Made by a program: the position numbers and the translations under genes. Under the pieces are notes generated by a model. That model searched no databases, had not been told where the DNA came from, and saw nothing but the letters and a program-made list of their open reading frames with translations. 32,000 nt of DNA, from the NCBI RefSeq assembly GCF_000619845.1, contig NZ_KK211037.1:322979-354978 (forward strand). The letters run 5' to 3'. The stretch comes from Alkanindiges illinoisensis DSM 15370 (lineage in GTDB: Bacteria > Pseudomonadota > Gammaproteobacteria > Pseudomonadales > Moraxellaceae). Positions 7,510-19,921 of this stretch are shown here, in pieces (the stretch's first letter is position 1; each line of letters opens with the position of its first letter).

Positions 7510-8442
7510 TTACTTAAAGCCGCGATGCAGCGCCACAATACCACCAGTCATGTTGTGATAATCACAGCTCTGGAAGCCTGCATTTTCCATCATTTGCTTT
7601 AAGGTGCGCTGGTCAGGGTGCATGCGGATAGATTCGGCCAGATAGCGATAGCTTTCAGAGTCATTGGCTACCAGCTTGCCCATCACGGGCAAGGCAGTAA
7701 AGGAATACAGGTCATACAGGCGTGATAACGGCTCAAATACCGGCTTGGAAAATTCAAGCACCAGCAGGCGACCACCCGGCTTGAGCACCCGGTACATGGC
7801 ACGCAGGGCAGCGTCCTTGTCGGTGACATTGCGCAGGCCAAAACTGATGGTCACCAGATCAAAGCTTTCATCGGCAAAGGGTTCGAGGGTTTCAGCATTG
7901 GCCAGTACAAAATCCACATTGGTACAGCCTTTGTCAATCAGGCGGTCACGGCCTACATTGAGCATGGATTCATTGATATCAGACAACACCACGTGACCCT
8001 GTGGTCCTACTTCGCGGCTAAAGGCCAGCGCCAGATCGCCCGTACCACCTGCAATATCCAGCACCTGCTGGCCACGCCGTACGCCGGACAGATTAATGGC
8101 AAAGCGCTTCCACAAGCGGTGAATCCCGAATGACATCAAATCATTCATCAGGTCATATTTGGCTGCCACTGAATGAAAGACTTCTGCCACTTTTTGCTGT
8201 TTCTCTTCCACATCCACGGTCTTGTAGCCAAAATGGGTGGTTGATCCCAGATTGCGGTGGTCAGCACCCTTAGGCAGACTTTGTTGCTGGCCCTGTGGAG
8301 TGCCTTGCGGTAAGGGCTGGCTTAAAAAGGGAGAGTTGGCATTGGCGGCATTATTGCTGTCTTGCGCAGGTGTATTTTGTGGGGAAGGATTGTTATTGGG
8401 ATTATTAAGGTTATTATGGGTGCTATTGTTGCTGTCAGACAT
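7510..8442 (-). CDS. ubiE: Demethylmenaquinone / 2-methoxy-6-polyprenyl-1,4-benzoquinol methyltransferase UbiE with an Asn/Gln/Pro-rich N-terminal extension
   Basis: 310 aa. The core from THFGYKTV onward ([25 protein letters not shown] motif [11 protein letters not shown], ...IVALHRGFK) is typical UbiE/MenG. The first ~65 residues are low complexity ([27 protein letters not shown]...). Confidence 0.93.
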
Positions 8443-8560
8443 GGGTAAAACTCCCTAATAAGCTGGTAAATGCAGTAAAATAAACATAAACAATGCTGCC
8501 GATCATGCCAGATTTTAGATTGTGTTGCTGGCCTAAACTGCAAAAAAATACATTAATTTA

Positions 8561-8630
8561 ATGACTAAAGTGAACAGGTTTCATAACTTTAAGCAGTGCT
8601 CGACATTACACCATTGCCCACTTTAGTCAT
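8561..8630. repeat. Perfect 12-bp inverted repeat (ATGACTAAAGTG ... CACTTTAGTCAT) with a 46-nt spacer, upstream of ubiE
   Basis: Arms at 8561-8572 and 8619-8630 are exact reverse complements. The repeat lies between the stop of the upstream minus-strand gene (8703) and the ubiE start (8442). Confidence 0.6.
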
Positions 8631-8702
8631 CTGGCGTTGATCATCCAGAGCGCCTGCTGCATTGTAAAGTCCTGATGATGGCTACCAGTAATTGACATGC
8701 GA

Positions 8703-9407
8703 TCAGGCAAATGGATAGGGGTCGCCCGCATGAACCTTGTCAATAATTTCACGTTCCTTGGCAGTAAAGGTATTTACAAATTCCTGTGCTGATGACAGTG
8801 GTTTCATGGCCTCAAAGCCTTCTTCCACAAAGTCATACATGGGGCCAACCTTGTATTTATAGGCCAGTCCTTTTGCCATCTTAAAAGCAGCCTTGACCAT
8901 GCGCGAGCGTACATATTTATCCAGACTAATGCCCAGCTCATCCAGCAGTGCCATCTGGCGCAAGCGGGGTTCACGCTGATCCAGCTTAAGGTAGGCGCGG
9001 CGCATGATGTCATCATTGAGTGGCATGGTGGGCGCGTAAGTGTTGAGCAGTTCAACCGCAAGCTCCTGATCCAGCCGGATTGCCAGTACAGCAAGTTCTA
9101 CTCCGGAAAAACCTGTACGGATGGCGGAGTCGGGAATAATTTTTTCAACCATGCCAGCATTATTGATCAACCGGGCAATCTGTCCAGCCAGTACATCAAA
9201 ATCAGGGCCACCATACAGGCGGTTTAAAAAATACTGGGTCATTAAGTGATGTTCTGGCACTGCAAAAAAATCATGGTGAGTTTTTTTCATGCGTTCTTTT
9301 TGCCAGCTTTGTACATCGTTCAAACGCTTGGCCAGTATTGGGTCCTGATGAAAATCCATTGCATGAAAAACTTCGAGTTGCTGTTGCAGTGCATCAAACT
9401 TTGACAT
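8703..9407 (-). CDS. Hypothetical helical protein, paralog A of a tandem pair
   Basis: 234-aa ORF with good coding appearance. It shares clear collinear motifs with the adjacent ORF: VQSWQKERMKKTH vs VQHWQKQRMQRMH, FLNRLYG vs LLDRLYN, LDQELAVELL vs LDEQVAQHLL, YDFVEEGFEAM vs YDYLAEAFAAI, and the C-terminal G(D/H)P(Y/M)PF. Confidence 0.7.
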   Translation of the reverse strand: MSKFDALQQQLEVFHAMDFHQDPILAKRLNDVQSWQKERMKKTHHDFFAVPEHHLMTQYFLNRLYGGPDFDVLAGQIARLINNAGMVEKIIPDSAIRTGFSGVELAVLAIRLDQELAVELLNTYAPTMPLNDDIMRRAYLKLDQREPRLRQMALLDELGISLDKYVRSRMVKAAFKMAKGLAYKYKVGPMYDFVEEGFEAMKPLSSAQEFVNTFTAKEREIIDKVHAGDPYPFA

Positions 9408-9495
9408 AAAAAATCATGACATTAAAATAACATGGTGACGAAGCATAACCGATTTTTCTAAGCACGGAATCATCCGGACGTGCCAAAATTGTGCA

Positions 9496-10218
9496 TCAAG
9501 CCTGTGCAAGCTGACAATTTTGGCCAAAAGGCATGGGGTGTCCCTGATAAATACGCTGCAATACCTGCTTTTCATCAGCGATAAACTGCTCAAAAAAAAT
9601 GTTACTGCGATCAGTACTGCGAATAGCTGCAAATGCCTCGGCCAGATAATCATATAAAAAGTTAAATTCACGCCGATAAGCCGTGCGCCGCGCCAGCCGG
9701 AAAGCGCTTTGAGTCAAAAAACTTCGACCATACTGATGAAAAGCCTGACTTATTTTTCTAAGTAGTATCAGCTGCTTAATGCGATCATTATATTGTTGCA
9801 GTGTTAGCATGGCCTGATGGATGCTGTCATCATCAATGATGGTAATGCCTTGATCGAGCAAATGCTGAGCAACCTGTTCATCCAGCTTTAATGTCAGGTA
9901 GGCCAGCCTGAAGGCAGAAATAGCAGCGCTAAGTACACCTTCAGGCAAAAAGCGATCCAGCTTGATTTTTTCTTTTAGCGCCTTGTCCAGTTGCTTTGCT
10001 AACTCATTCAAGTCATGCATATTATAGAGGCGATCTAATAAAAAACTGGCAAGACGCTGATATTGAAGCTGACTAAATAAAGGCTGATGCATGCGTTGCA
10101 TACGCTGCTTTTGCCAATGCTGAACTGCTGTTAAATAATGGGAAACATCGCGGTTACGATGAAGCTGGAGGCGTTTATAATATCTGAGCTGCTTGGATAA
10201 AGTGACAATAGCTGACAT
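9496..10218 (-). CDS. Hypothetical helical protein, paralog B of a tandem pair
   Basis: 240-aa ORF, paralogous to 8703-9407 (motifs listed there). It is divergent from the PPK2 gene across a 75-bp spacer. Confidence 0.7.
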   Translation of the reverse strand: MSAIVTLSKQLRYYKRLQLHRNRDVSHYLTAVQHWQKQRMQRMHQPLFSQLQYQRLASFLLDRLYNMHDLNELAKQLDKALKEKIKLDRFLPEGVLSAAISAFRLAYLTLKLDEQVAQHLLDQGITIIDDDSIHQAMLTLQQYNDRIKQLILLRKISQAFHQYGRSFLTQSAFRLARRTAYRREFNFLYDYLAEAFAAIRSTDRSNIFFEQFIADEKQVLQRIYQGHPMPFGQNCQLAQA

Positions 10219-10293: not shown

Positions 10294-11970
10294 ATGTCAG
10301 AAAAAATGCCCATGTCGCCCGCTGGTCAAAAACAGGCTCTTCAGAGGCGGACTGTACGCAAGCCAGCAATTCATAAGCCAACAGTGGATCATTCCAAAGC
10401 GCAAGAAAAATTAGACCAGCCACAATCAGCCAGCAGTATAAAACCGGCTGTACCTGCACTTACCCACATTGAGCCGGATGCATTAAATCTGGCCTTGTTA
10501 AAAGCCCAGTTGCAGTTGCGCGCCAGTAGTCAAAATGTTAAGCAGCCTCAGCCTGGCAAAAGCCTGCTGATTCTGGTGGGCGGTATTGAACTGGCTGGCA
10601 AGGGGGAAGCCGTCATCCAGTTACGGGAATGGATGGACCCGCGTTATCTAAAGGTCAAGGCCAGCTTGTCCAAACCCTTGGCCAGCAACCAGCCGTTCTG
10701 GCAGGATTATGTGGATGCCATTCCAGCATGCGGGCAAATTGCCGTGCTGTTTGGCAATTGGTATGGTGACCTGCTGTACAGTGGCCTGCATGAAAGCCAG
10801 TTTAATACGCGTCAGTTTCAGCAGGCAGTGCTGCAAATGCGCGAGTTTGAGCAGGATCTGGCCGCTAATGGCGTGACTGTAATCAAGTGCTGGTTTGATA
10901 TTTCATGGAATTGCCTGCAACAGCGCCTGAACAAGCTGGATGCCAGTGCCCGGCAATGGCAGCAACTGCATGGGCTGGACTGGCGCGACCAGCAGCAGTA
11001 CCGCAGAATTCAGCGCTTGCGCAAACAGTTTACCGACGACTGGTTTATCATCAATGGTGAAAACAGCCAGCAGCGTGATTTGGAATTCGGCCATCTGGTG
11101 CTAGATGCATCAAACACCGCGTTACCGGTACCGCAGATTGCAAATTGCTGGCAACAGGCCAGTATTCCAGCCATGTTGTTAAAACCTGCGCAACAAAAGC
11201 TGGAAAAGCAGCAATATAACGTGGAGCTGGCACAGCTTCAGCAACAGGTGGCGCAATTGCTACGCCAGTATATGCTGTATTCATCCGTAGTCATTGTGTT
11301 TGAAGGGATGGATGCTGCTGGCAAGGGCGGCGCAATCAAGCGCGTGGTCGCGCCACTGGACCCGCGCGAGTATGAGATTCATAGTATTGCTGCGCCGGAT
11401 TCTTTCGAAAAACGCCATCCGTACTTATGGCGCTTCTGGACACGCCTGCCCAGACCGGGCGGCATGACTATTTTTGATCGCTCATGGTATGGTCGCGTGC
11501 TGGTTGAACGGGTAGAAAGTTTTGCCAGTAACGCTGAGTGGCAGCGCGCTTATGATGAGATCAACCACTTTGAACAACAACTTAGTGACAGCGGAATACT
11601 GGTGATCAAATTCTGGCTGGGCATTAGTGAAAAGGAACAGCTCAAGCGCTTTCAGGCCCGCGAGGTTAATCCGCACAAGCAATATAAAATTACTGATGAG
11701 GATTGGCGCAATCGCAAAAAATGGCAGCAATATCTGGAGGCCGCAGCGGATATGCTCCAGCGTACCGATAGTTCTCAGGCGCCATGGGCCGTTATTGCCA
11801 CCAATGATAAAAAAACCGCACGCATTGCTGTGCTAAGCCACATGGTCAATCAGCTTGAAGAAAGGTTAAAAACAATGACCAAATCACTCCGGAAGCCAAA
11901 ACCAGCCACCCAGCAGCCTGATCCGGCAAACGCTAACCAGACTCCGGTAGCTCATCAGTTGGAAGAATGA
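10294..11970 (+). CDS. pap: Two-domain polyphosphate kinase 2 family protein (polyphosphate:AMP phosphotransferase type)
   Basis: 558 aa with two tandem PPK2 domains. The N-terminal domain has a variant P-loop (LVGGIELAGKGEAV). The C-terminal domain has a canonical one (VFEGMDAAGKGGAIKRV, FDRSWYGRVLVERV). This is the architecture of the PAP enzyme characterised in Acinetobacter johnsonii. AAGGA Shine-Dalgarno 7 nt before the ATG. There is a ~80-aa low-complexity N-terminal extension. Confidence 0.88.
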   Translation: MSEKMPMSPAGQKQALQRRTVRKPAIHKPTVDHSKAQEKLDQPQSASSIKPAVPALTHIEPDALNLALLKAQLQLRASSQNVKQPQPGKSLLILVGGIELAGKGEAVIQLREWMDPRYLKVKASLSKPLASNQPFWQDYVDAIPACGQIAVLFGNWYGDLLYSGLHESQFNTRQFQQAVLQMREFEQDLAANGVTVIKCWFDISWNCLQQRLNKLDASARQWQQLHGLDWRDQQQYRRIQRLRKQFTDDWFIINGENSQQRDLEFGHLVLDASNTALPVPQIANCWQQASIPAMLLKPAQQKLEKQQYNVELAQLQQQVAQLLRQYMLYSSVVIVFEGMDAAGKGGAIKRVVAPLDPREYEIHSIAAPDSFEKRHPYLWRFWTRLPRPGGMTIFDRSWYGRVLVERVESFASNAEWQRAYDEINHFEQQLSDSGILVIKFWLGISEKEQLKRFQAREVNPHKQYKITDEDWRNRKKWQQYLEAAADMLQRTDSSQAPWAVIATNDKKTARIAVLSHMVNQLEERLKTMTKSLRKPKPATQQPDPANANQTPVAHQLEE

Positions 11971-13598
11971 AGTATTTCCCAGCTTAAGCCAAAACGAGCC
12001 AGATACTTTTTAACCCGGTCGCTGTCGTTGGTGGTGCTGCGTTGTTCGCGTGATACGGCAAACAGCTGGCGTCCGGCTTCGGCCATGGTTTTGCTATTTT
12101 GACAAACCTGAATCACGCCAAGTAGTTGAATCTTATCAAACTCATCAATTTGCATGAGTTGTTCGTTGCTTAAAAGTTGTGCTAAAAGGGCAGCATCTGT
12201 GGATAACTTCTGGTTTTTCCACAGTGCATTTTCCCCAAGTGCAGGGTCTGTTGCATCAGTTTTCCACAATTGCTTAAGGCGCTCAATTTCCTGCGTAACA
12301 TCAGGCAGGTTAATGCGGGAGCCATTGGCCAGCGTTGCCATACGGGTCACACTGGCGGTTAAATCCCGGAAATTGCCTTGCCAGGTGGCTTGTTCCGATT
12401 TTGCAAATTTGAGATACACATCCAATGCGTCGCGGTTAAACCGTAACTGGCGCTGGTGCAGGTTGGCAAAGCGTTGCAGTTCAAACTGCACATTGGGTGC
12501 AATATCCTCGCTGCGGTCTTTTAGCGCAGGCAAAAAGAATGTCCAGGTATTCAGGCGTGCCCATAAATCCTCACGAAAACGTCCCGCTTTAACTTCCTGA
12601 CGCAAATCACAATTGGTGCCTGCAATTAACTGGAAATCGGCCTGAATTTCCTTGTCACTACCAACTGGAAAAAAGATTTTATCTTCCAGTGCCTTGAGCA
12701 GCATGGCTTGTTCATCGGCACCCAGTTCGCCAATTTCATCCAGAAATAAAATGCCGCCATCGGCACTTTTGAGTAATCCCTGCCGTGCGCTGGCTGCCCC
12801 GGTAAACGCGCCTTTAACATGACCAAACAACGCCGACATGGCACTATCACCGCGCAGGGTGGCACAATTGACATCAACAAAGCGGCCATTTAAATGAAAT
12901 TTCTCTTTTTTTAGTTGGTAAATCTGCTTGGCCAGATGCGATTTGCCAGCGCCCGTGGCGCCCATAATTAAAATCGGCGCACTGGAGCGGGTGGCAACCA
13001 GTTCTACCTGTTCAATCAGCTGGTTAAAGGCGGCATTGTGTGTGGCAATATTGGCTTTAAGCTGCTGCCAGTTGGCATTTTGCTCATTTTCAAAGCGCTG
13101 GTTTAAGGCATCATATTTGGATAAATCCAGATCAATAATCCGGTACTGGCCCTGTGCGGTTTTATTTTCATTGGGCGAGCTTTGGATGAGCTTGGCAGGT
13201 AAATAACCGGCTTCAATCAGCAAATACCAGCAAATTTGCGCCACATGCGTGCCTGTGGTGATATGCAGCAAATACTCATATTTTTCAGTGTCAAACTGAT
13301 AGTTTTTGACAAAGTCATACAGGGCGCCGTAAACATCGGCAAAATCCCATGGATCACGCACACTCACCTTGGCGCCAGTCACCTGTGTTTGCGGTGAAAG
13401 CTGTGCCATATCCTCGCTTAAAAAATTCACCAGATTGCGGTGCTGGCGATCATGCAACAGTACCAGCTCATCAATGACCAGATCATCATGCATGAGCAAA
13501 CTCATGGTTGGCCGCCAGCGCTGCCAGCGATCATCCTTTTTGCCCTGATCCAGCGTTGCGCCGACAAAGCCAATCACCACGGTTTTTTTGTGCGTCAT
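11955..13598 (-). CDS. rtcR: Sigma54-dependent transcriptional activator RtcR (CARF sensor domain + AAA+ + HTH)
   Basis: 547 aa. The N-terminus (KKTVVIGFVGATLDQGKK..RWQRWRPT..., HITTGTHVAQICWYLLIEAGYLPAKLIQSSP) matches the RtcR CARF-type domain. The central region is a sigma54-interaction AAA+ domain (GATGAGKS Walker A, GAFTGA loop, LFLDEIGEL Walker B). The 3' end overlaps the convergent pap gene by 16 bp. Confidence 0.92.
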   Translation of the reverse strand: MTHKKTVVIGFVGATLDQGKKDDRWQRWRPTMSLLMHDDLVIDELVLLHDRQHRNLVNFLSEDMAQLSPQTQVTGAKVSVRDPWDFADVYGALYDFVKNYQFDTEKYEYLLHITTGTHVAQICWYLLIEAGYLPAKLIQSSPNENKTAQGQYRIIDLDLSKYDALNQRFENEQNANWQQLKANIATHNAAFNQLIEQVELVATRSSAPILIMGATGAGKSHLAKQIYQLKKEKFHLNGRFVDVNCATLRGDSAMSALFGHVKGAFTGAASARQGLLKSADGGILFLDEIGELGADEQAMLLKALEDKIFFPVGSDKEIQADFQLIAGTNCDLRQEVKAGRFREDLWARLNTWTFFLPALKDRSEDIAPNVQFELQRFANLHQRQLRFNRDALDVYLKFAKSEQATWQGNFRDLTASVTRMATLANGSRINLPDVTQEIERLKQLWKTDATDPALGENALWKNQKLSTDAALLAQLLSNEQLMQIDEFDKIQLLGVIQVCQNSKTMAEAGRQLFAVSREQRSTTNDSDRVKKYLARFGLSWEILHSSN

Positions 13599-13787
13599 TC
13601 CAGTTGGCTAATATTGAGGTGTTGGCTGAATTCTAGCGATAAAACCAGCCAATAAACATGCGCAGCCCGCTTTTTATTCAAGCTTAATAAGTACACGTAC
13701 AAGCATTGCCCCACACCAGTGATAAACCCGCTAAAATGTCCCCAGTTTTTGCACTATTCTGCGATGTCTATTTTGGGATGTATGGCC

Positions 13788-14780
13788 ATGACCGATATGC
13801 TCACGTTTACCTTTTTGGGAACCTCTTCCGGAGTGCCCACCAAAACCCGTAATGTGTCTGGCCTGGCGCTGCAAACCAGTTTGAGCAAAAAATGGCTACT
13901 GATTGATGCCGGGGAAGCCACCCAGCACCGCTTGCAGCATACTGGCCTGTCACCGCATGACATGGCTGTAGTCTGTATTACCCATGCGCATGGCGACCAT
14001 TGCTATGGCTTGCCGGGCTTATTGGCCAGCGCCAGCATGGGCAAGCGCACCGAACCCTTAATTCTGATTGCACCGCAAAACGTACTGGACTGGTTTAACG
14101 CCACCGTTAAGCTCACCGACCTGCATTTGTCTTATGAAGTGATTTTGCGTGACAGCAGTAGTGTGCTGGCACAACCAGTTGAATTGATGCATGGGATTTG
14201 GGTACAGGCTTATGCGCTGGTACATCGGGTGGAATGCTATGCCTATGCCTTTACCGTGCAGCACAGTCGGCGCAAGTTAAATACCACAGCACTGCAACAA
14301 CTAGGCCTACCTGCTGGACGTGACTGGAAAGCTTTGCAGCATGGGCAGGATGTAGAATTTAACGGGCAAATTCTGCATAGCCACGATTTTGTGCAAAACC
14401 AAACTATGCAGGTTAAAGCAGTGATTGCCGGGGATAATGCGCAACCCGATGTGCTAACGCAGGCCTGCCAGAATGCTGATGTGCTGGTGCATGAAGCCAC
14501 CTATTTGCAGGCGGTGCTAGATAAGGTGGGGCCGGGGCCAATGCACAGCTCGGCCAAGCTGGTGGCGGAATTTGCCGGATTGGTAAGCTTGCCCAATCTG
14601 GTGCTCACGCATTTTAGTCCGCGGCATCATGGTGATGCAGGACAGGCCGCGATTGAACAGGAGGTGAAAACTTATTATCAGGGCACAGTATTTTTAGCTG
14701 ATGATTTGAAGCGCTATCGCCTGAGTGAGACAGGGATGTTGCAGGAAGTTGCCGAATCAGCAGAACAGAAAAAAGCGTAA
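13788..14780 (+). CDS. rnz: Ribonuclease Z / RNase BN (metallo-beta-lactamase fold tRNA 3' endonuclease)
   Basis: It is collinear with E. coli RNase BN/ElaC as I recall it: FLGTSSGVPTKTRNVSGLAL, LIDAGEATQHRL, the HxHxDH motif (ITHAHGDHCYGLPGLLAS), VHEAT and LTHFSPR. The start is uncertain: the track start at 13719 is GTG, and in-frame ATGs lie at 13782, 13788 and 13797. Confidence 0.85.
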   Translation: MTDMLTFTFLGTSSGVPTKTRNVSGLALQTSLSKKWLLIDAGEATQHRLQHTGLSPHDMAVVCITHAHGDHCYGLPGLLASASMGKRTEPLILIAPQNVLDWFNATVKLTDLHLSYEVILRDSSSVLAQPVELMHGIWVQAYALVHRVECYAYAFTVQHSRRKLNTTALQQLGLPAGRDWKALQHGQDVEFNGQILHSHDFVQNQTMQVKAVIAGDNAQPDVLTQACQNADVLVHEATYLQAVLDKVGPGPMHSSAKLVAEFAGLVSLPNLVLTHFSPRHHGDAGQAAIEQEVKTYYQGTVFLADDLKRYRLSETGMLQEVAESAEQKKA

Positions 14781-14794
14781 CCCAATACCAAGCG

Positions 14795-15115
14795 TTAAAG
14801 ATCCGGCGAAAAATCAATATCCAGATGCTTTAACAGTTTGCCCAGCAGTCGAAAAGGCCAGCTAATGATCTGAAATAAAAATTCAATGGGTAGGTCAATG
14901 AGGTCTAGCCAGTCGTGATTGCTCTTCGTATTACTGTTGCGTCGCCCCGCGCGCTGTCGTTGTGAAGTAGCAGGCTTAATCCAGTAAGCCAATATAATGC
15001 AAACTGCAAAGGCCAGTAGAAAAATCCAGTTCCAGTCATCACTAAAAAACCGGATGACACAAAATATGCCTGTAATGAATAAAATTATTGCCACTAGATA
15101 GCGGATAAAAACCAT
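14795..15115 (-). CDS. Small hypothetical membrane protein (two predicted N-terminal TM helices, basic loop)
   Basis: 106-aa ORF reading MVFIRYLVAIILFITGIFCVIRFF...IFLLAFAVCIILAYWI followed by a basic stretch RQRAGRRNSNTK. I recognise no family. It is convergent with rnz across a 14-bp gap. Confidence 0.5.
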   Translation of the reverse strand: MVFIRYLVAIILFITGIFCVIRFFSDDWNWIFLLAFAVCIILAYWIKPATSQRQRAGRRNSNTKSNHDWLDLIDLPIEFLFQIISWPFRLLGKLLKHLDIDFSPDL

Positions 15116-15345
15116 AGAAATAATCTCAAATTTATAGGAATCATTGAATTTTTCTTGTGCTTTAACTTAGCAGCTTTTAGTAGCAAAACCAGTAAAATAA
15201 ATTATAGATTAAAAAATATAATAATAGATTTTATTCTATAAATTTAAAAAATTTGAATTTACCTATTTTTAAATAGAAAATAATTTATGGCTTAATTCAA
15301 TGATTTTAAATATTTTTATTTTTAATTTAAAAGAAAACTTAAAGC

Positions 15346-15361
15346 TGGCACAGGCTGTGCA
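15346..15361 (+). promoter_or_regulatory. Sigma54 (-24/-12) promoter for rtcB
   Basis: TGGCAC-aggct-GTGCA has a perfect -24 TGGCAC element and the correct GG-N10-GC spacing. It lies 87 nt upstream of the rtcB ATG and is preceded by about 230 bp of very AT-rich DNA. This fits the established RtcR/sigma54 control of rtcBA in E. coli. Confidence 0.75.
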
Positions 15362-15447
15362 ATATATACATGAGCAAATGATAGCAGTATAGAAAATCCC
15401 TGCTAAGCCATGAATAACCAGTATTTATTTTAAAATAGGGTAAGACC

Positions 15448-16746
15448 ATGAACACAGCCATTGAGCAATCCATTAATAATTCAGCCCAGTCTTCCGTAGA
15501 GTTGTCAGCGCAACCGCACGCTGCTTCCCGTGCCTATAACGTAATTCAAACTGAAAAAACCGTTCCGGTAAAAATGTGGACGCAGGGTGTGAACGTGGAT
15601 GAAAAGTCCAAGGATCAATTGCTGAAAACTGCACAAATGCCGTTTATTTATAAATGGATGGCGGTGATGCCGGATGTGCATGTGGGGATTGGTGCCACCA
15701 TTGGTAGTGTGATTCCAACCAAGGGCGCCATTATTCCAGCAGCGGTGGGCGTGGATATTGGTTGCGGAATGATGGCAGTGAAAACCAGCCTGACTGCGTC
15801 CGATTTGCCAGATAACCTGCATGCGCTACGGACAGAACTGGAGCGTTTGATCCCGCACGGGATGAGTCCAAAAAATCGCGGCCGTGACCGGGGATCATGG
15901 GAAAATGCACCAGACCGGATGGATCAGGTTTGGGCTGAGCTGGCGGCGGATTTTGAGCTGATTTGTGCCAAGCATCCGCGCCTGAAAAATACTAACAACC
16001 GCAAGCATCTGGGAACGCTGGGAACCGGCAACCACTTTGTGGAAGTGTGCCTGGATGAATATCAGGGCGTGTGGATTATGCTGCACTCCGGTTCGCGCGG
16101 TGTGGGAAATGCCATTGGGACGCATTTTATTGAGCTGGCGCGTAAAGACATGCAAAAGCATTTTATTAACCTGCCCGATAAAGACCTTGCGTATCTGGTT
16201 GAAGGCACCGAGCATTTTGATGATTACTGGTTTGCGGTGGGCTGGACGCAGCGTTTTGCCCTGAAAAACCGTGAACTAATGATGGAATCTGCCATTAAAG
16301 CACTGGCCACCATTATTCCAAAACCGTTTAATGCCAAGGTGGAAGCAGTGAATTGTCACCATAATTATGTGGACCGCGAAACTCACTATGGTGAAGAAGT
16401 GCTGGTGACCCGTAAGGGCGCGGTGCGTGCGCGATTGGGTGAATACGGGATTATTCCGGGTTCGATGGGTGCCAAGTCATTTATTGTGCGTGGTCTTGGT
16501 AATCAGGAATCGTTTTGTTCCTGCTCGCATGGCGCTGGCCGACTGATGAGCCGTACCGAAGCCAAAAAACGCTTTACCGTGCAGGATCAAGTTGCGCAAA
16601 CTGAAGGCGTGGAGTGCCGGAAGGACACAGCGGTGATTGATGAAATTCCATCGGCCTATAAACCAATTGAAGATGTGATGAAGGCACAAAGGGATCTGGT
16701 AGAGGTGGTCTATACCTTGCGGCAGGTGGTGTGTGTGAAGGGATGA
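15448..16746 (+). CDS. rtcB: RNA 3'-phosphate ligase RtcB
   Basis: 432 aa carrying RtcB metal-binding and active-site signatures: MPDVHVGIGATIGSV, DIGCGM, GTLGTGNHFVE, HSGSRGVGN, NCHHNY, SCSHGAGR. Confidence 0.95.
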   Translation: MNTAIEQSINNSAQSSVELSAQPHAASRAYNVIQTEKTVPVKMWTQGVNVDEKSKDQLLKTAQMPFIYKWMAVMPDVHVGIGATIGSVIPTKGAIIPAAVGVDIGCGMMAVKTSLTASDLPDNLHALRTELERLIPHGMSPKNRGRDRGSWENAPDRMDQVWAELAADFELICAKHPRLKNTNNRKHLGTLGTGNHFVEVCLDEYQGVWIMLHSGSRGVGNAIGTHFIELARKDMQKHFINLPDKDLAYLVEGTEHFDDYWFAVGWTQRFALKNRELMMESAIKALATIIPKPFNAKVEAVNCHHNYVDRETHYGEEVLVTRKGAVRARLGEYGIIPGSMGAKSFIVRGLGNQESFCSCSHGAGRLMSRTEAKKRFTVQDQVAQTEGVECRKDTAVIDEIPSAYKPIEDVMKAQRDLVEVVYTLRQVVCVKG

Positions 16747-16749
16747 TGG

Positions 16750-16916
16750 TTCGACAAGCTCACCAACCGTGGTTCGACACTTCCTCTAAGGCTGTCGAAA
16801 GTTGGTTTCTGAGTTTGCCAAAGGACACTAACTATCCAAGGATGCTAGCCGGTTCCCTGAGCTTGCCGAAGGGCAGTGCCCGGTTTGTGTTGATCCGGTG
16901 CCTGAGCTTGTCGAAG
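16750..16916. repeat. Array of a ~15-nt motif (TTCGACAAGCTCAGC and its complement CTGAGCTTGTCGAAG) starting 4 nt after the rtcB stop
   Basis: A forward copy sits at 16750-16762. A ttcgaca/tgtcgaa hairpin pair lies at about 16773-16798. Complement-orientation copies are at 16809-16823 (degenerate), 16857-16871 and 16902-16916, spaced 48 and 45 bp apart. Their translation produces the spurious SLSLPKG / LSLSKAE peptide seen in track ORF 16731-16925. Confidence 0.8.
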
Positions 16917-17270
16917 GCCGAATAACACACTATTGTTTAACTTACTAATAAAAATGCCGAATGCAATCCATGAACGCTTATATGTACATACTGAGATGTG
17001 CTGATGATAGTTATTATGTAGGCAGTACCACAAATCTGGAAGCTCGCCTTTATCAGCATCAAATGGGTGAAGGGTCAAATCATACCAAGAAGCATTTACC
17101 AGTAACCTTGGTGTACTGTGAGGAATTTGAGCGGATTGATGGAGCGTTTGCACGAGAGAAGCAGGTGCAAAAGTGGCGACGGCAAAAGAAGGAAGCACTT
17201 ATCAATCATGAGTTTGAGAAGTTGCCAGAGCTTTCAATGTCAAGGTCGTCTAGGGCTTCGACAAGCTCAG
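16902..17270. mobile_element. Putative GIY-YIG cassette bounded by a perfect 15-bp inverted repeat
   Basis: CTGAGCTTGTCGAAG (16902-16916) and CTTCGACAAGCTCAG (17256-17270) are exact reverse complements. They bracket the conserved part of the GIY-YIG ORF. More copies of the same motif lie outside both ends. Mobility itself is an inference. Confidence 0.5.
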
Positions 17271-17290
17271 CCACCGAGTACGGGGTGTAG
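16961..17290 (+). CDS. GIY-YIG nuclease family protein (small stand-alone UPF0213/YhbQ-like type)
   Basis: The sequence YMYILRCADDSYYVGSTTNLEARLYQHQ...VYCEEFERIDGAFAREKQVQKWRRQKKEALI carries the GIY-YIG core (YIL..YVG, R, E, KxW.R.KK). The likely true start is ATG 16970 (MNAYMYIL). The last ~17 codons (..SRASTSSATEYGV) are read out of the flanking repeat motif. Confidence 0.8.
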   Translation: MQSMNAYMYILRCADDSYYVGSTTNLEARLYQHQMGEGSNHTKKHLPVTLVYCEEFERIDGAFAREKQVQKWRRQKKEALINHEFEKLPELSMSRSSRASTSSATEYGV

Positions 17291-17444
17291 TCCGATTGGT
17301 TTAGACGAGTTCAGCCATCGGTTCCGCATGCTCAACTCCTGAATCAACACAAGTTTAAGCACTGCCTTTCAATGGTTGGTGCCTTTCGACAGGCTTACGG
17401 GACGTGTCGAACTACAAGCTCAGCCAGCGTCTAACAAGCTTAGC
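17256..17444. repeat. Second array of the TTCGACAAGCTCAGC motif, downstream of the GIY-YIG ORF
   Basis: One perfect copy lies at 17256-17270. Degenerate copies are tttagacgagttcagcc (~17299-17315), tttcgacaggcttac (~17386-17400), gtcgaactacaagctcagcc (~17406-17425) and acaagcttagc (~17434-17444). Confidence 0.7.
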
Positions 17445-17476
17445 AATCCATTGCAGAATATTTGAGGACAACTAAA

Positions 17477-17930
17477 ATGAAACTCGCAGAAGCCTTATTA
17501 CTGCGTAGCGACCAGCAAAAAAAGCTGGCATCAATGAAACAGCGTATCAACGCCAACGTGCTGGTACAGGAAGGCGATACGCCATCGGAAGACCCGAATG
17601 AACTGATGCAACAGGTCTTTGCCTTAACCCATGAAACCCAGGGGCTGATTTTGCAGATTCACCGCACCAATGCGCAGGCAAAACTGGGCGATGGACGCCT
17701 GCTGCTAGAGCTTTTAATGCAGCGTGATGAACTGGCAGAGCGGCATAAAATTATCACCGGGGCCATTGCCAGTACGCACCGTGAGCCGGATCGCTATAGC
17801 GCGCGAAATCAAATGGCAAAAAGTGATACCCGTCGCTAGCCTGCAAAAACAGGCTGATGATATTAGCGCCAAATTGCGAGATTTGAATATTACAATTCAG
17901 GCTGCTAACTGGCAGATTGATGTGGTTTAA
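17477..17930 (+). pseudogene. DIP1984-family (septicolysin-like) helical protein gene, interrupted by a frameshift
   Basis: Two overlapping track ORFs (17462-17839 and 17724-17930) join into one ~150-aa protein: MKLAEALLLRSDQQKKLASMKQRI...REPDRYSAR|EIKWQKVIPVASLQKQADDISAKLRDLNITIQAANWQIDVV. This matches the DIP1984 family pattern as I recall it. The frame changes inside the alternating run agcgcgcg at 17798-17805. GAGGA Shine-Dalgarno 8 nt before the ATG at 17477. A sequencing error cannot be excluded. Confidence 0.65.
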
Positions 17931-17981
17931 CTAACCACGTAAAGAATTTTGCGCATTGCAATTGTGGTGGGCAATACCGTT

Positions 17982-18177
17982 TAGAACATACTGAGCGAGT
18001 GCAAGACCCCCGTAATTCCCGTCTGAGGGGTTGAACAAATATCAGAGGGCTATGGCGCGCGGTGAGCTCGTGCACAACTTTGCATATGGCAAGCTCAGCA
18101 CCTTGCACGATTCAAGCCTTTGCCTAACCCGCAAAGTCACTTGTAACCCAGCACTACCATGCACTGACAGTATGTTC
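17982..18177. mobile_element. 196-bp MITE-like element with terminal inverted repeats, 45 bp upstream of rtcA
   Basis: There is an 11-bp perfect TIR: AGAACATACTG at 17982-17992 and CAGTATGTTCT at 18167-18177. It extends imperfectly to ~20 bp (..agcgagtgca vs ..tcagtgca). The element has internal hairpins (ACCCC..GGGGT, CTTTGCctaacccGCAAAG) and no credible ORF. It shares motifs with the ubi-spacer and recB repeats (agaaca, tgcaagac, ctttgc-ytaa-yc..gcaaag). Confidence 0.6.
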
Positions 18178-18222
18178 TTTTATTTAAACTTAATGATAAA
18201 ACAAATTAATTAGAGAAAAGCA

Positions 18223-19248
18223 ATGACAACAATCATCGATATTGATGGTTCACAAGGGGAAGGGGGCGGCCAGATTTTGCGTACTGCACTATCGCTGTCC
18301 ATGATTACGGGCAAGCCGTTCCGGCTGGTCAATATCCGCGCTGGCCGTAAAAAGCCCGGCTTAATGCGCCAGCATCTGGTTTGTGTGCAGGCGGCCCAGC
18401 GCATCAGTAATGCCAGCGTGCAGGGCGATGAGCTGCACAGCCAGCAGCTTGAATTTTTCCCGCAAGGCATTCAGGCCGGGCAGTATGACTTTAATATTGG
18501 AACGGCAGGCAGCACCATGCTGGTATTGCAAACCCTGCTGCCTGCCCTGTTGCTTCAGGAGAAGTCCAGCCGGATTAGTATTCAGGGCGGCACGCATAAT
18601 CCTATGGCACCGACTGCTGATTTTATCCAGCAATGCTTTTTACCGACAATTTCCAGGATGGGCATTGACGTTGAATTTGAGGTAGAACAAGCCGGATTTT
18701 TCCCGATTGGTGGCGGTAAGGTCACTGCCACTATCCAGCCCTGGCAAAACCGGCAAAGCCTGGATTTAACCAAGCGTGGTGAAGTGCAGGCAGTTAATTC
18801 TTATGCCGGTGTGTTGAATTTAACCGATGATATTGCCAAACGCGAAATGGCCGTGCTGCAAGATCAATTATCGCCTAGTCACAGCCAGCAGGTTTATTTA
18901 AAAGGCATTAGTCAGGGCAATACGGCTTATGTTGCTGTACACAGTGAGCAGCATTGTCAGCTGTTTACCGCACTAGGCGAAATGCGCAAAAGTGCCGAAC
19001 GGGTTGCGCATGATCTAGCGCGCGAGGTGAAAAATTACCTGAAAAGTAATGCGGTCGTAGATGAGCATTTGGCGGATCAGTTGTTACTGCCGCTGGCCTT
19101 GGGCAATGGTGGCACATTTACCGCACAGTGCATAAGCGAACATACCCGCACCCAAGCCGCCATGATTCAAAAATTTCTGGATTGTGAGATTAAATTCGCT
19201 ACCACAATAGATGGCACAGACCTGATTACTGTCATTGCTAGTCATTAA
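18223..19248 (+). CDS. rtcA: RNA 3'-terminal phosphate cyclase RtcA
   Basis: 341 aa. IDGSQGEGGGQILRTALSLSMITGKPFRLVNIRAGRKKPGLMRQHL is the canonical RtcA N-terminus. The active-site His region is present (VDEHLADQLLLPLAL). Confidence 0.93.
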   Translation: MTTIIDIDGSQGEGGGQILRTALSLSMITGKPFRLVNIRAGRKKPGLMRQHLVCVQAAQRISNASVQGDELHSQQLEFFPQGIQAGQYDFNIGTAGSTMLVLQTLLPALLLQEKSSRISIQGGTHNPMAPTADFIQQCFLPTISRMGIDVEFEVEQAGFFPIGGGKVTATIQPWQNRQSLDLTKRGEVQAVNSYAGVLNLTDDIAKREMAVLQDQLSPSHSQQVYLKGISQGNTAYVAVHSEQHCQLFTALGEMRKSAERVAHDLAREVKNYLKSNAVVDEHLADQLLLPLALGNGGTFTAQCISEHTRTQAAMIQKFLDCEIKFATTIDGTDLITVIASH

Positions 19249-19387: not shown

Positions 19388-19921
19388 ATGAACGTAAATC
19401 ATTTGCTGGTGGCACTGGTGGCTGCACTGGTGTTTATTGTGGGCGGTACATGGCTTTATACCAGCATATCCAACGAGCAGCACCGTGCCAAGCTGGCCGC
19501 AGCGCACGCTGCCATGCAGGATCATTCGCCGGTTTATACCACTGTTCAGATTAAGATGCAGGGACAGGGCAGGGAAATTACCTTAAAAGGTGTGTTTGAG
19601 TCGGTCGATGCTGAACACTGCTTTAATGAGCAGCAGAAAAGTTCTTCTTTAATGGGCAACTATCAGCAACGCTGCAATAGTGAGCTTAGCTGTCAGTCAG
19701 TTAAGCTGTCATCTTGCAGCACCTTTGTAGAAGCAAACTATAAGGATATGCTGAATAAAAAACCAGCGCCCACACGCTATGTGCATTTGCAAAATGCTCA
19801 GAACCCTAAAGAGCGTGGCGTTTTAGTATTTTGGGGCTTAAACAGCAGCGAAGCTGATGATTTTTGTACGCATATGACCAAACAACGTGTGCCCGAATAC
19901 ATTGAAATGGCCTGTATTTAA
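19388..19921 (+). CDS. Hypothetical N-terminally anchored, Cys-rich protein
   Basis: 177-aa ORF with a GGGGA Shine-Dalgarno 4 nt upstream and one N-terminal TM or signal-anchor helix (LLVALVAALVFIVGGTWLY). Seven Cys residues lie in the predicted extracytoplasmic part. I recognise no family. Confidence 0.55.
   Translation: MNVNHLLVALVAALVFIVGGTWLYTSISNEQHRAKLAAAHAAMQDHSPVYTTVQIKMQGQGREITLKGVFESVDAEHCFNEQQKSSSLMGNYQQRCNSELSCQSVKLSSCSTFVEANYKDMLNKKPAPTRYVHLQNAQNPKERGVLVFWGLNSSEADDFCTHMTKQRVPEYIEMACI

Follow-up and report, generated by a model that had tools for sequence, protein, structure and literature searches.

RNA-repair operons and the rtc locus of Alkanindiges

The closest known parallel to the locus described here is the Ro/Y RNA pair encoded in rtc operons of Salmonella (PMC4201824, PMC7790460). 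Both the Salmonella operon (rsr-yrlBA-rtcBA) and the present locus are RNA-repair operons of the RtcR/sigma54 type in which the gene for a non-enzymatic protein lies by one or two structured non-coding RNAs, the ends of which pair into a long stem and some members of which carry a tRNA-like T-arm. In the rtcR/rtcBA locus of E. coli, rtcR diverges from the operon, which has a sigma54-type promoter and in which rtcB precedes rtcA on the same strand. To our knowledge, little has been established about the substrates on which the bacterial Rtc system acts in nature or about its partners, and the Ro/Y RNA pair of Salmonella-type operons is its only known accessory RNA-protein pair. We analysed a stretch of 32,000 nt (hereafter the window) from Alkanindiges illinoisensis DSM 15370 (contig NZ_KK211037.1, positions 322,979 to 354,978), in which rtcB and rtcA are separated by an interval of 1476 nt. 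This interval is probably two-layered, with an ancestral and conserved module, formed by a DIP1984/DUF6847 gene and a structured RNA, lying beside a variable cargo slot that holds a selfish GIY-YIG element.

The locus shares with that of E. coli the divergent rtcR, a candidate for the sigma54-type promoter and the order of rtcB and rtcA, and departs from it in the length of the rtcB-rtcA gap and in having an RNase Z-like gene between rtcR and rtcB, the variable slot and the DIP1984-RNA module. The differences from Salmonella lie in the protein, the RNA and their placement. Unlike Ro/Rsr, which is a TROVE/Ro ring, the protein is a 151-aa, four-helix member of DIP1984/DUF6847; the RNA is longer than YrlA and YrlB and lacks an Rfam match. 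The Rsr and Y RNA genes of Salmonella are upstream of rtcB, whereas the module is situated between rtcB and rtcA and, unlike rsr-yrlBA, also stands alone on plasmids and in at least five phyla.

Matches to PF01139 (E 5e-130) and PF01137 (E 2e-80), the latter supplemented by NF003246 (419 bits against a cut-off of 352), confirmed that the RNA ligase gene rtcB (15448-16746, + strand) stops at 16746 and that the RNA 3'-phosphate cyclase gene rtcA (18223-19248, + strand) starts at 18223, the limits that an earlier sequence-only reading had given to a 1.48-kb gap. The four components which that reading had listed in the gap, namely arrays of a short motif, a GIY-YIG open reading frame (ORF), a frameshifted DIP1984-like gene and a 196-bp element with terminal inverted repeats, were also all found at the positions claimed for them. 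For comparison, one genome scan with RtcB produced a sample of 80 loci, the nearest being those of Acinetobacter (83-87% protein identity) and Psychrobacter, and these were compared by tblastn of the window proteins; L numbers denote individual loci, both of this sample and from other sources. Among 64 related loci with rtcA downstream of rtcB, the gap was at most 150 nt in 27 and exceeded 400 nt in 33. Adjacency of the two genes, the E. coli-type arrangement that had been taken as the starting point, is therefore not a general feature of this part of the tree.

The DIP1984 gene and the RNA downstream of it

The conserved module extends over 17477-18178 on the + strand. Within the RtcR/sigma54 operon of Moraxellaceae the order is rtcB, slot, DIP1984, RNA and rtcA; all 10 Acinetobacter loci and three Psychrobacter loci carry an intact DIP1984 gene and the RNA between rtcB and rtcA, and the minimal Acinetobacter arrangement (the L168 type) has only 56 nt between rtcB and DIP1984-RNA-rtcA. 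The Undibacterium loci (L031 and L038) show a different order, rtcB-rtcA-DIP1984-RNA-rtcB2. In all loci with DIP1984 that were examined, the RNA began 15-55 nt 3' of the gene and had its orientation; searches with nhmmer, run with an alignment of DIP1984-rtcA spacers, and with the covariance model R1 located it in every Moraxellaceae locus with DIP1984, and R1 located it in Undibacterium and in the close relatives L165-L168. The sequence-only reading had called the gap inserted-looking DNA and proposed a comparison of rtcB-rtcA synteny to reveal which pieces are conserved. For the DIP1984 gene and the 196-bp element, the invasion that it considered is refuted by their conservation in the 10 Acinetobacter and three Psychrobacter loci; no GIY-YIG homologue was present in any of the 80 RtcB loci.

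The RNA occupies 17983-18178 on the + strand (196 nt) and was recognized by nhmmer, by two covariance models and by covariation. It is bounded by a perfect 11-nt inverted repeat (17983-17993 and 18168-18178) that corresponds to helix P1, inside which an internal loop (AGCG at 17994-17997 opposite GA at 18166-18167) separates P1 from helix P2 (17998-18003 with 18160-18165). Hairpins are placed at 18018-18049, at 18063-18067 with 18093-18097 and at 18118-18136, and a conserved ACCA (18156-18159) precedes the 3' strand of P2. Members of the family range from 140 to 200 nt, and all possess the terminal stem with its internal loop. The DIP1984-rtcA spacer that contains the RNA measures 282-292 nt in seven Moraxellaceae species and is conserved far above the level expected of a spacer.

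Pairing of the terminal repeat is maintained through changes of sequence, which read GAACAUACUG/CAGUAUGUUC in Acinetobacter, GAACCGACUG/CAGUCGGUUU in Psychrobacter and AAAUAUAUUG/CAAUAUAUUU in second copies. In alignment A4, compensatory changes were seen in 28 of 48 pairs, 89.5% of cells were paired compared with 26-45% when partners were slid, and none of 500 shuffles reached the observed score. Alignment A7 (MAFFT, 10 sequences from six lineages, scored on a hand-written structure) gave covariation in all 14 pairs of P1 and P2, with 91% paired against 24-40% after sliding. P1 and P2 were kept in these six lineages with entirely different sequences, while the conserved elements were the RGCG/GA loop, a GGGC...GCCCAGCAC hairpin and the ACCA located 5' of P2'. 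The ratio of 62 G-U to 21 A-C pairs points to an RNA that is read from the + strand. On the evidence of this strong covariation, the 196-bp element is a structured RNA; the element and its terminal repeats had been located correctly, but its reading as an insertion does not hold. A reading of the element as a miniature inverted-repeat transposable element (MITE) or transposon end was rejected, the inverted repeats being the closing helix of a conserved structured RNA. A peptide-coding reading was also rejected; a 53-aa ORF (18052-18213) overlaps the element, and most relatives have no ORF there.

The RNA was traced beyond Moraxellaceae and Undibacterium by two further approaches. Model R2, built from alignment A7, found three copies that were not in its training set, in Streptantibioticus (E 1e-25), on a Mycobacterium avium plasmid (E 2e-21) and on an Enterococcus contig (E 1e-16), and gave no match at E<=0.1 in 20 scanned loci without DIP1984. 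An anchored pattern (6-bp P1, RGCG, 5-bp P2, interval, P2', GA or GG, P1') matched directly 3' of DIP1984 in Paracoccus, Enterococcus and Mycobacterium, against a background of about 25 chance matches in 2.8 Mb, and Streptomyces fits the pattern by eye. Pattern matches in L095, L100 and L136 were attributed to chance, as they fall within coding regions and DIP1984 is missing from their vicinity. The A. baumannii plasmid pHKU6a (8.7 kb) has no rtc genes; its DIP1984 adjoins znuD2 and the RNA comes next (R1, E 2e-41); on a Picosynechococcus plasmid, a DIP1984 with 38% identity is accompanied by an RNA found by R1 (E 1e-8). A canonical terminator lies 3' of the RNA in Enterococcus, and the unit therefore reads DIP1984-RNA-terminator. 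Two arrangements stand as separate observations: in L009 (7932-8370) and L011 (8590-9032) a single DIP1984 gene is followed by two tandem, diverged RNA copies, recalling the yrlB-yrlA pair of Salmonella, and on the M. avium plasmid pS2b (L184 2099-5392) the module is surrounded by 12 arrayed tRNA genes of the other strand. Overall, the module occurs without rtc genes on Acinetobacter plasmids and in Cyanobacteria, Alphaproteobacteria, Actinobacteria and Enterococcus, spanning at least five phyla and including chromosomes, plasmids and one phage-labelled contig.

This distribution bears on the question of whether the module belongs to the Rtc system at all. DIP1984 and the RNA may instead be a mobile and self-serving module, akin to an addiction- or defence-type cassette, that landed in the rtc operon of a Moraxellaceae ancestor and has no role in RNA repair, in which case the entire 1.48 kb would be an accumulation of mobile DNA of different ages. 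Its presence on small Acinetobacter plasmids and a phage-labelled contig, and in unrelated neighbourhoods of Cyanobacteria, Actinobacteria, Alphaproteobacteria and Enterococcus, is consistent with such a history, as are the broken DIP1984 gene of the window and the retention of the module in L082, a locus that has lost its rtc genes. However, the position and strand of the module between rtcB and rtcA are constant in Acinetobacter, Psychrobacter and the lineage of the window, a second linkage to rtc genes with a different order exists in Undibacterium, and the minimal Acinetobacter operon is tightly packed. We regard a purely self-serving module as a possible but rather unlikely explanation.

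In the window the DIP1984 gene (17477-17930, + strand; NF038048 and PF20935) is broken by a 1-nt deletion. The N part scored 115 bits on NF038048 against a cut-off of 70 and the C part added 45 bits in another frame, with 17477-17839 covering profile positions 1-109 and 17724-17930 covering positions 107-148; the frameshift suspected from the letters of the sequence was thereby upheld. A codon-level comparison with 14 relatives assigned the single missing base to the GCGCGCG run at 17799-17805. All 14 are in frame at this site (GAT CGN TAT AGN NNN CGN GAA ATN AAA TGG), where the window has GAT CGC TAT AGC GCG CG- GAA ATC AAA TGG. Fourteen proteins that are 93-97% identical to the repaired DIP1984 are all intact at 151 aa, the range among relatives overall being 151-153 aa. 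Both halves of the gene are well conserved apart from the frameshift, which could reflect an inactivation that is recent and confined to this strain, or else an error. If the gene were intact in the organism, a mistake in sequencing or assembly would account for a single base missing from a short GC-repeat, for the lack of further defects in two otherwise conserved halves and for the intact genes of all close relatives. Against this, the site is not a homopolymer, and the Logan assembly of SRR3313971, which possibly derives from the same reads, is identical base for base over 10416-19119, including the frameshift. An error at this position seems improbable to us.

The DIP1984 family comprises 2365 clusters at 50% identity. 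An AlphaFold model predicts a fold of four helices (pLDDT 87) and matches only an uncharacterized structure, PDB 3KDQ, which itself matches a DIP1984 relative with E 6e-22; other structural matches were rejected as generic coiled coils with E >0.1. No paper on the function of DIP1984/DUF6847 was present in the literature searched, the RNA-repair survey of Burroughs & Aravind (2016) lying outside that search, and the only traces came from papers on Acinetobacter plasmids and genomes, which use the label "septicolysin" and, once, annotate a gene as "DIP1984".

We also considered whether the 196-nt element could be a Y RNA resembling YrlA, with a Ro60/Rsr partner encoded elsewhere, for which the architecture of Y RNAs provides the standard of comparison (PMC4201824, bioRxiv 10.1101/312249). 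The element resembles these RNAs in its location within an rtc operon, in the pairing of its 5' and 3' ends as a long stem with an internal loop, in the two tandem copies of L009 and L011 and in the perfect tRNA-like T-arm of actinobacterial members, which reads GGGGUUCGACUCCC or GGGUUCGACUCCC within the GGGC/GCCC hairpin (L181 4563-4585, L182 4556-4575). However, it is 140-200 nt long, compared with 80-130 nt for Y RNAs (PMC4201824), its invariable neighbour is DIP1984 rather than rsr, and neither a D-arm nor the order of T-arm, closed stem and D-arm was seen in its members. Proteobacterial copies have, in place of the T-arm, a conserved GGRUUGAAAAUA loop in a different hairpin. No Rfam 15 family matched the window as a whole at gathering thresholds, or the gap and the copies of L009, L181 and L182 at permissive E (<=5-10); the sole signals were chance matches and sub-threshold tRNA-Sec on actinobacterial copies. 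ARAGORN, applied to the window and to the RNA of seven further loci, called neither a tRNA nor a tmRNA. No TROVE/Ro protein was found in the window among the scanned ORFs that do not belong to known genes and reach 120 aa or more, and a 558-aa ORF adjoining rtcR was rejected as a Ro candidate on being identified as PPK2. With neither a TROVE neighbour among the scanned ORFs nor a match to an Rfam covariance model, the DIP1984-RNA module does not qualify as a Ro/Y RNA system, and identity of the element as a Y RNA is very unlikely.

Type III toxin-antitoxin systems have a tandem-repeat RNA gene 5' of a toxin gene with a terminator between them. This layout was rejected for the module, in which the RNA is 3' of the protein gene, is usually single-copy and does not consist of short tandem repeats.

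That the element instead serves rtcA in cis, as a leader, an attenuator or a promoter region, and is not a partner of DIP1984, is hardly credible, for although it lies directly 5' of rtcA with a near-constant spacer length (about 283-292 nt) in most Acinetobacter loci, it stays by DIP1984 where other genes separate it from rtcA (L007, L010), where rtcA is upstream (Undibacterium) and where rtcA is absent (plasmids, other phyla and L082).

The variable slot and its GIY-YIG element

The slot (16747-17463, + strand) begins directly after the rtcB stop and finishes just before the DIP1984 start, sharp limits that were set by the alignment ends of L165 and L166, and in the window it contains a GIY-YIG ORF and both motif arrays. 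Relatives that are 82-92% identical in the flanks have unrelated cargo, or almost nothing, between the same boundaries. The closest of these, L165 (approximately 92% identical on both sides), aligns with the window to 16746 and resumes at 17464, with an unrelated 466 bp bearing a 98-aa ORF in between; L166 aligns to 16742, resumes at 17465 and has a DUF4145 gene in the slot (L166 5289-6032). In other Acinetobacter the slot is occupied by a HEPN-like integron-type domain, DUF7684, unclassified ORFs or an IS3 element, or is reduced to just 56 nt. L082 (4661-5985; Logan SRR27257537), which is more distantly related, has a GIY-YIG gene at the same place, adjoining an intact DIP1984 and RNA, with approximately 70-87% identity to the window over aligned segments and the same flanking synteny (PPK2 ... 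ABC transporter). Thus the slot displays a presence/absence polymorphism among close relatives, with other DNA in L165 and L166 and GIY-YIG in L082. The idea that the operon is a hotspot for selfish elements stands for 16747-17463, where cargo differs in L165, L166 and Acinetobacter, and fails for the DIP1984 gene and the 196-bp element. In this sense each of the two alternatives originally offered, a selfish hotspot or unrecognized accessory parts of an Rtc-type system, appears right for a different piece, the accessory role being a putative one.

Several features of individual slots deserve mention in their own right. The right array of the GIY-YIG gene is gone in L082 and its left array consists of three tandem units. 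The slots of L005 (7243-7902), L006 and L008 are part of a set of rtcB-rtcA cargo that includes the HEPN-like integron-type domain and DUF7684, and in L004 (7708-8927; Acinetobacter colistiniresistens) the slot contains an IS3-family element whose two ORFs overlap and lie on the - strand. L007 has a HEPN_LA2681 gene (8403-10007) outside the slot, between the RNA and rtcA. Cargo of the rtc loci in relatives may include RNase-type genes within an RNA-repair operon.

The GIY-YIG nuclease ORF (16961-17290, + strand) matched PF01541 with 63.6 bits against a cut-off of 22.6 (E 2e-17) and, judging from homologues, probably starts at the ATG at 16970. It is flanked by arrays of a 14-nt motif, TTCGACAAGCTCAG (also written CTGAGCTTGTCGAAGG). 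Allowing up to three mismatches, this motif has 12 matches in the window compared with 2.2 expected, a number reached in none of 100 shuffles, and nine of the 12 are at 16750-17423. The left array (16750-16919) has five copies in the form of CTGAGCTTGTCGAA and variants, and the right array (17253-17446), with TTCGACAAGCTCAG and variants, is inverted relative to it; of the nine matches, those 5' of the ORF mostly have - orientation and those 3' of it + orientation. The arrays form nested long inverted repeats (16769-16801 with 17383-17415; 16896-16919 with 17253-17276), and as RNA the slot is predicted to fold through long-range pairing of the two arrays (-244 kcal/mol versus -208 in shuffles, z -6.75). 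The right array encodes the last 35 nt or so of the ORF. A weaker match with three mismatches over 14 nt is present at 18085-18098, inside the RNA element, where the GCUCAGCAC strand resembles the motif AAGCTCAG; this likeness appears coincidental, since species that lack the GIY-YIG element conserve these nucleotides as well.

The association of gene and motif is not confined to this locus. The protein has 2168 homologues, including many from Bacteroidota, Smithella, KSB1 and Pasteurellaceae with 60-75% identity, and the variable C-terminal tails of these homologues read into repeats, yielding peptides such as ASTSSATG and PEPVEG. Motif density was 2.37/kb within 500 bp of 80 metagenomic GIY-YIG homologues and 0.07/kb beyond, a 33-fold difference, and in Phocoenobacter the same motif pair flanks a GIY-YIG homologue in tandem units. 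An exact-sequence look-up of the window protein returned no match, and the literature searched held no description of a GIY-YIG gene with this repeat.

Two known classes of element offer partial parallels. Like the free-standing GIY-YIG homing endonuclease genes (phage T4 Seg, I-TevI-type), this is a small gene that some close relatives have and others lack at one and the same intergenic position and that shows high similarity across distant hosts, as expected of a horizontally moving selfish gene. Unlike those enzymes, the protein is only approximately 90-110 aa with no recognizable separate DNA-binding domain; the gene is flanked by inverted 14-nt motif arrays, which are not described for homing endonuclease genes, and has no intron, intein or phage context. 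Like the REP/RAYT system, it combines a nuclease-type gene with clusters of its own short palindrome-forming repeat on either side. However, the RAYT enzyme is an HUH/Y1 transposase and the one found here is GIY-YIG; no HUH/Y1 (IS200/IS605-like) transposase lies by the repeats, the GIY-YIG gene being the sole family-matched ORF between the arrays. REP repeats are lineage-specific, whereas this motif is conserved across phyla, and no genome-wide dispersal was seen as far as this can be judged within the 32-kb window. The differing cargo of relatives, together with the same motif flanking homologues in distant bacteria, supports the view that the GIY-YIG gene and its cognate inverted arrays are a horizontally spreading selfish element, for which the mode of movement is our inference. 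A GIY-YIG gene with 14-nt motif arrays that recur across phyla may represent an undescribed class of mobile element.

Expression, neighbouring genes and significance

A candidate sigma54-type promoter, TGGCACAGGCTGTGCA (15346-15361, + strand), is situated approximately 90 nt 5' of rtcB. It is a consensus match, with one mismatch to TGGCAC-N5-TTGCW, and the window as a whole contains no more such matches than chance would give; TGGCAC-N5-CTGCA was found 65-130 nt 5' of rtcB in eight relatives. Consensus scans of the rtcB-rtcA gap detected no sigma70-like or sigma54-like promoter and no terminator-like site on its + strand (counts in the sigma70 and terminator scan were no higher than in shuffles), in agreement with the earlier claim that rtcA has no obvious promoter of its own. 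Because the + strand of the gap is without such sites, rtcA is probably read through from a sigma54-type promoter 5' of rtcB, and this is probably the simplest model for its expression.

The activator gene adjoining the operon is rtcR (11955-13598, - strand), in which both an RtcR/CARF-type N-domain (PF06956, E 7e-79) and a sigma54-interaction AAA+ domain (PF00158, E 3e-51) were detected. Between rtcR and rtcB is a gene for an RNase Z-like metallo-beta-lactamase protein (13719-14780, + strand; PF12706, PF00753 and TIGR02651, the 241 bits on the last being below the model's cut-off). This gene holds the same position in Acinetobacter loci and is a constant member of the Moraxellaceae rtc locus; it is also present in L063, L067, L069 and L073, a homologue lies 3' of rtcB in Variovorax and Allofranklinella loci, and precomputed Pfam matches include Anti-Pycsar_Apyc1. 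A 106-aa membrane ORF between the RNase Z-like gene and rtcB (14795-15115, - strand) and a 177-aa ORF 3' of rtcA (19388-19921, + strand) have no family match, and both are kept in the close relatives L165 and L166. Elsewhere, 840-1020 nt separate rtcB from rtcA in the beta-proteobacterial rtc loci L072, L078, L058, L076, L079 and L034, where neither DIP1984 nor a match to the RNA was found, and a second, diverged rtcB paralogue (56-57% identity) is found 3' of rtcA in several loci of Oxalobacteraceae and related Burkholderiales (L031, L038, L023, L033 and L042).

These features suggest a model in which transcription would start at the candidate promoter at 15346-15361 and pass through rtcB, the slot and the DIP1984-RNA module before reaching rtcA. 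The RNA would then either be cut out or act within the transcript, and DIP1984 would bind it, the two forming an accessory protein-RNA pair for the Rtc system. In the window DIP1984 would have been inactivated by the 1-nt deletion while the RNA stayed intact. The anatomy of the interval, its conservation, the co-occurrence of DIP1984 and the RNA, the covariation and the polymorphism of the slot are shown by the comparisons above; transcription, binding, a role of the module in RNA repair and the way in which the GIY-YIG element moves are expectations drawn from them.

A number of considerations weigh against the two-layered interpretation and the model. The case for binding of the RNA by DIP1984 is their strict adjacency, and that for co-transcription of the RNA with rtcA is likewise drawn from sequence; the ends of the RNA and its transcription are predictions. 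The predicted structure of DIP1984 provides no functional clue, and the broken gene of the window implies that DIP1984 is dispensable at least in this strain. The link between module and RNA repair may be incidental, as the module is also found without rtc genes on plasmids and in other phyla, and L082 has lost rtcR-rtcB and rtcA, of which a 180-nt rtcR remnant is left, yet keeps GIY-YIG, DIP1984 and the RNA. For the GIY-YIG element, neither a target-site duplication nor an empty-site pair was found from which its ends or its mode of movement could be defined. Finally, the loci were sampled through RtcB or DIP1984 and form a biased sample, covariance-model E-values are rough, and alignment A4, with 21 rows of which one is a weak match (E 0.94), was fitted to the model.

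Even so, the two-layered organization has consequences for several fields of annotation and function. The 200-300 nt that annotations leave blank 3' of DIP1984 genes do have content, and the inverted-repeat element should not be named a MITE; the RNA constitutes a family absent from Rfam 15, with strong covariation and a conserved RGCG/GA internal loop. DUF6847/DIP1984 proteins, which have a solved structure and are often misleadingly annotated as septicolysin, gain in this companion RNA a first functional clue. The frequent occupation of the slot by HEPN-type genes, and here by GIY-YIG, suggests that genes turn over at the Rtc locus in connection with conflict. More tentatively, and with somewhat less than even confidence, we propose that DIP1984/DUF6847 and the downstream RNA make up a previously unrecognized and widespread bacterial protein-RNA particle that was recruited into the Rtc operon by two proteobacterial lineages. 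If so, its role in the operon would be analogous to that of Ro/Y RNA, and the particle could sense damaged RNA or serve as a decoy or scaffold for it; the RNA could also be a direct substrate of RtcB, as the pairing of its 5' and 3' ends brings them into a good position to be ligated into a circle. Genetic work is feasible in Acinetobacter, and 8.7-kb clinical plasmids carry the module too. A second protein-RNA pair, unrelated to the first and placed between rtcB and rtcA, would be a concrete and testable lead on the function of the Rtc system.

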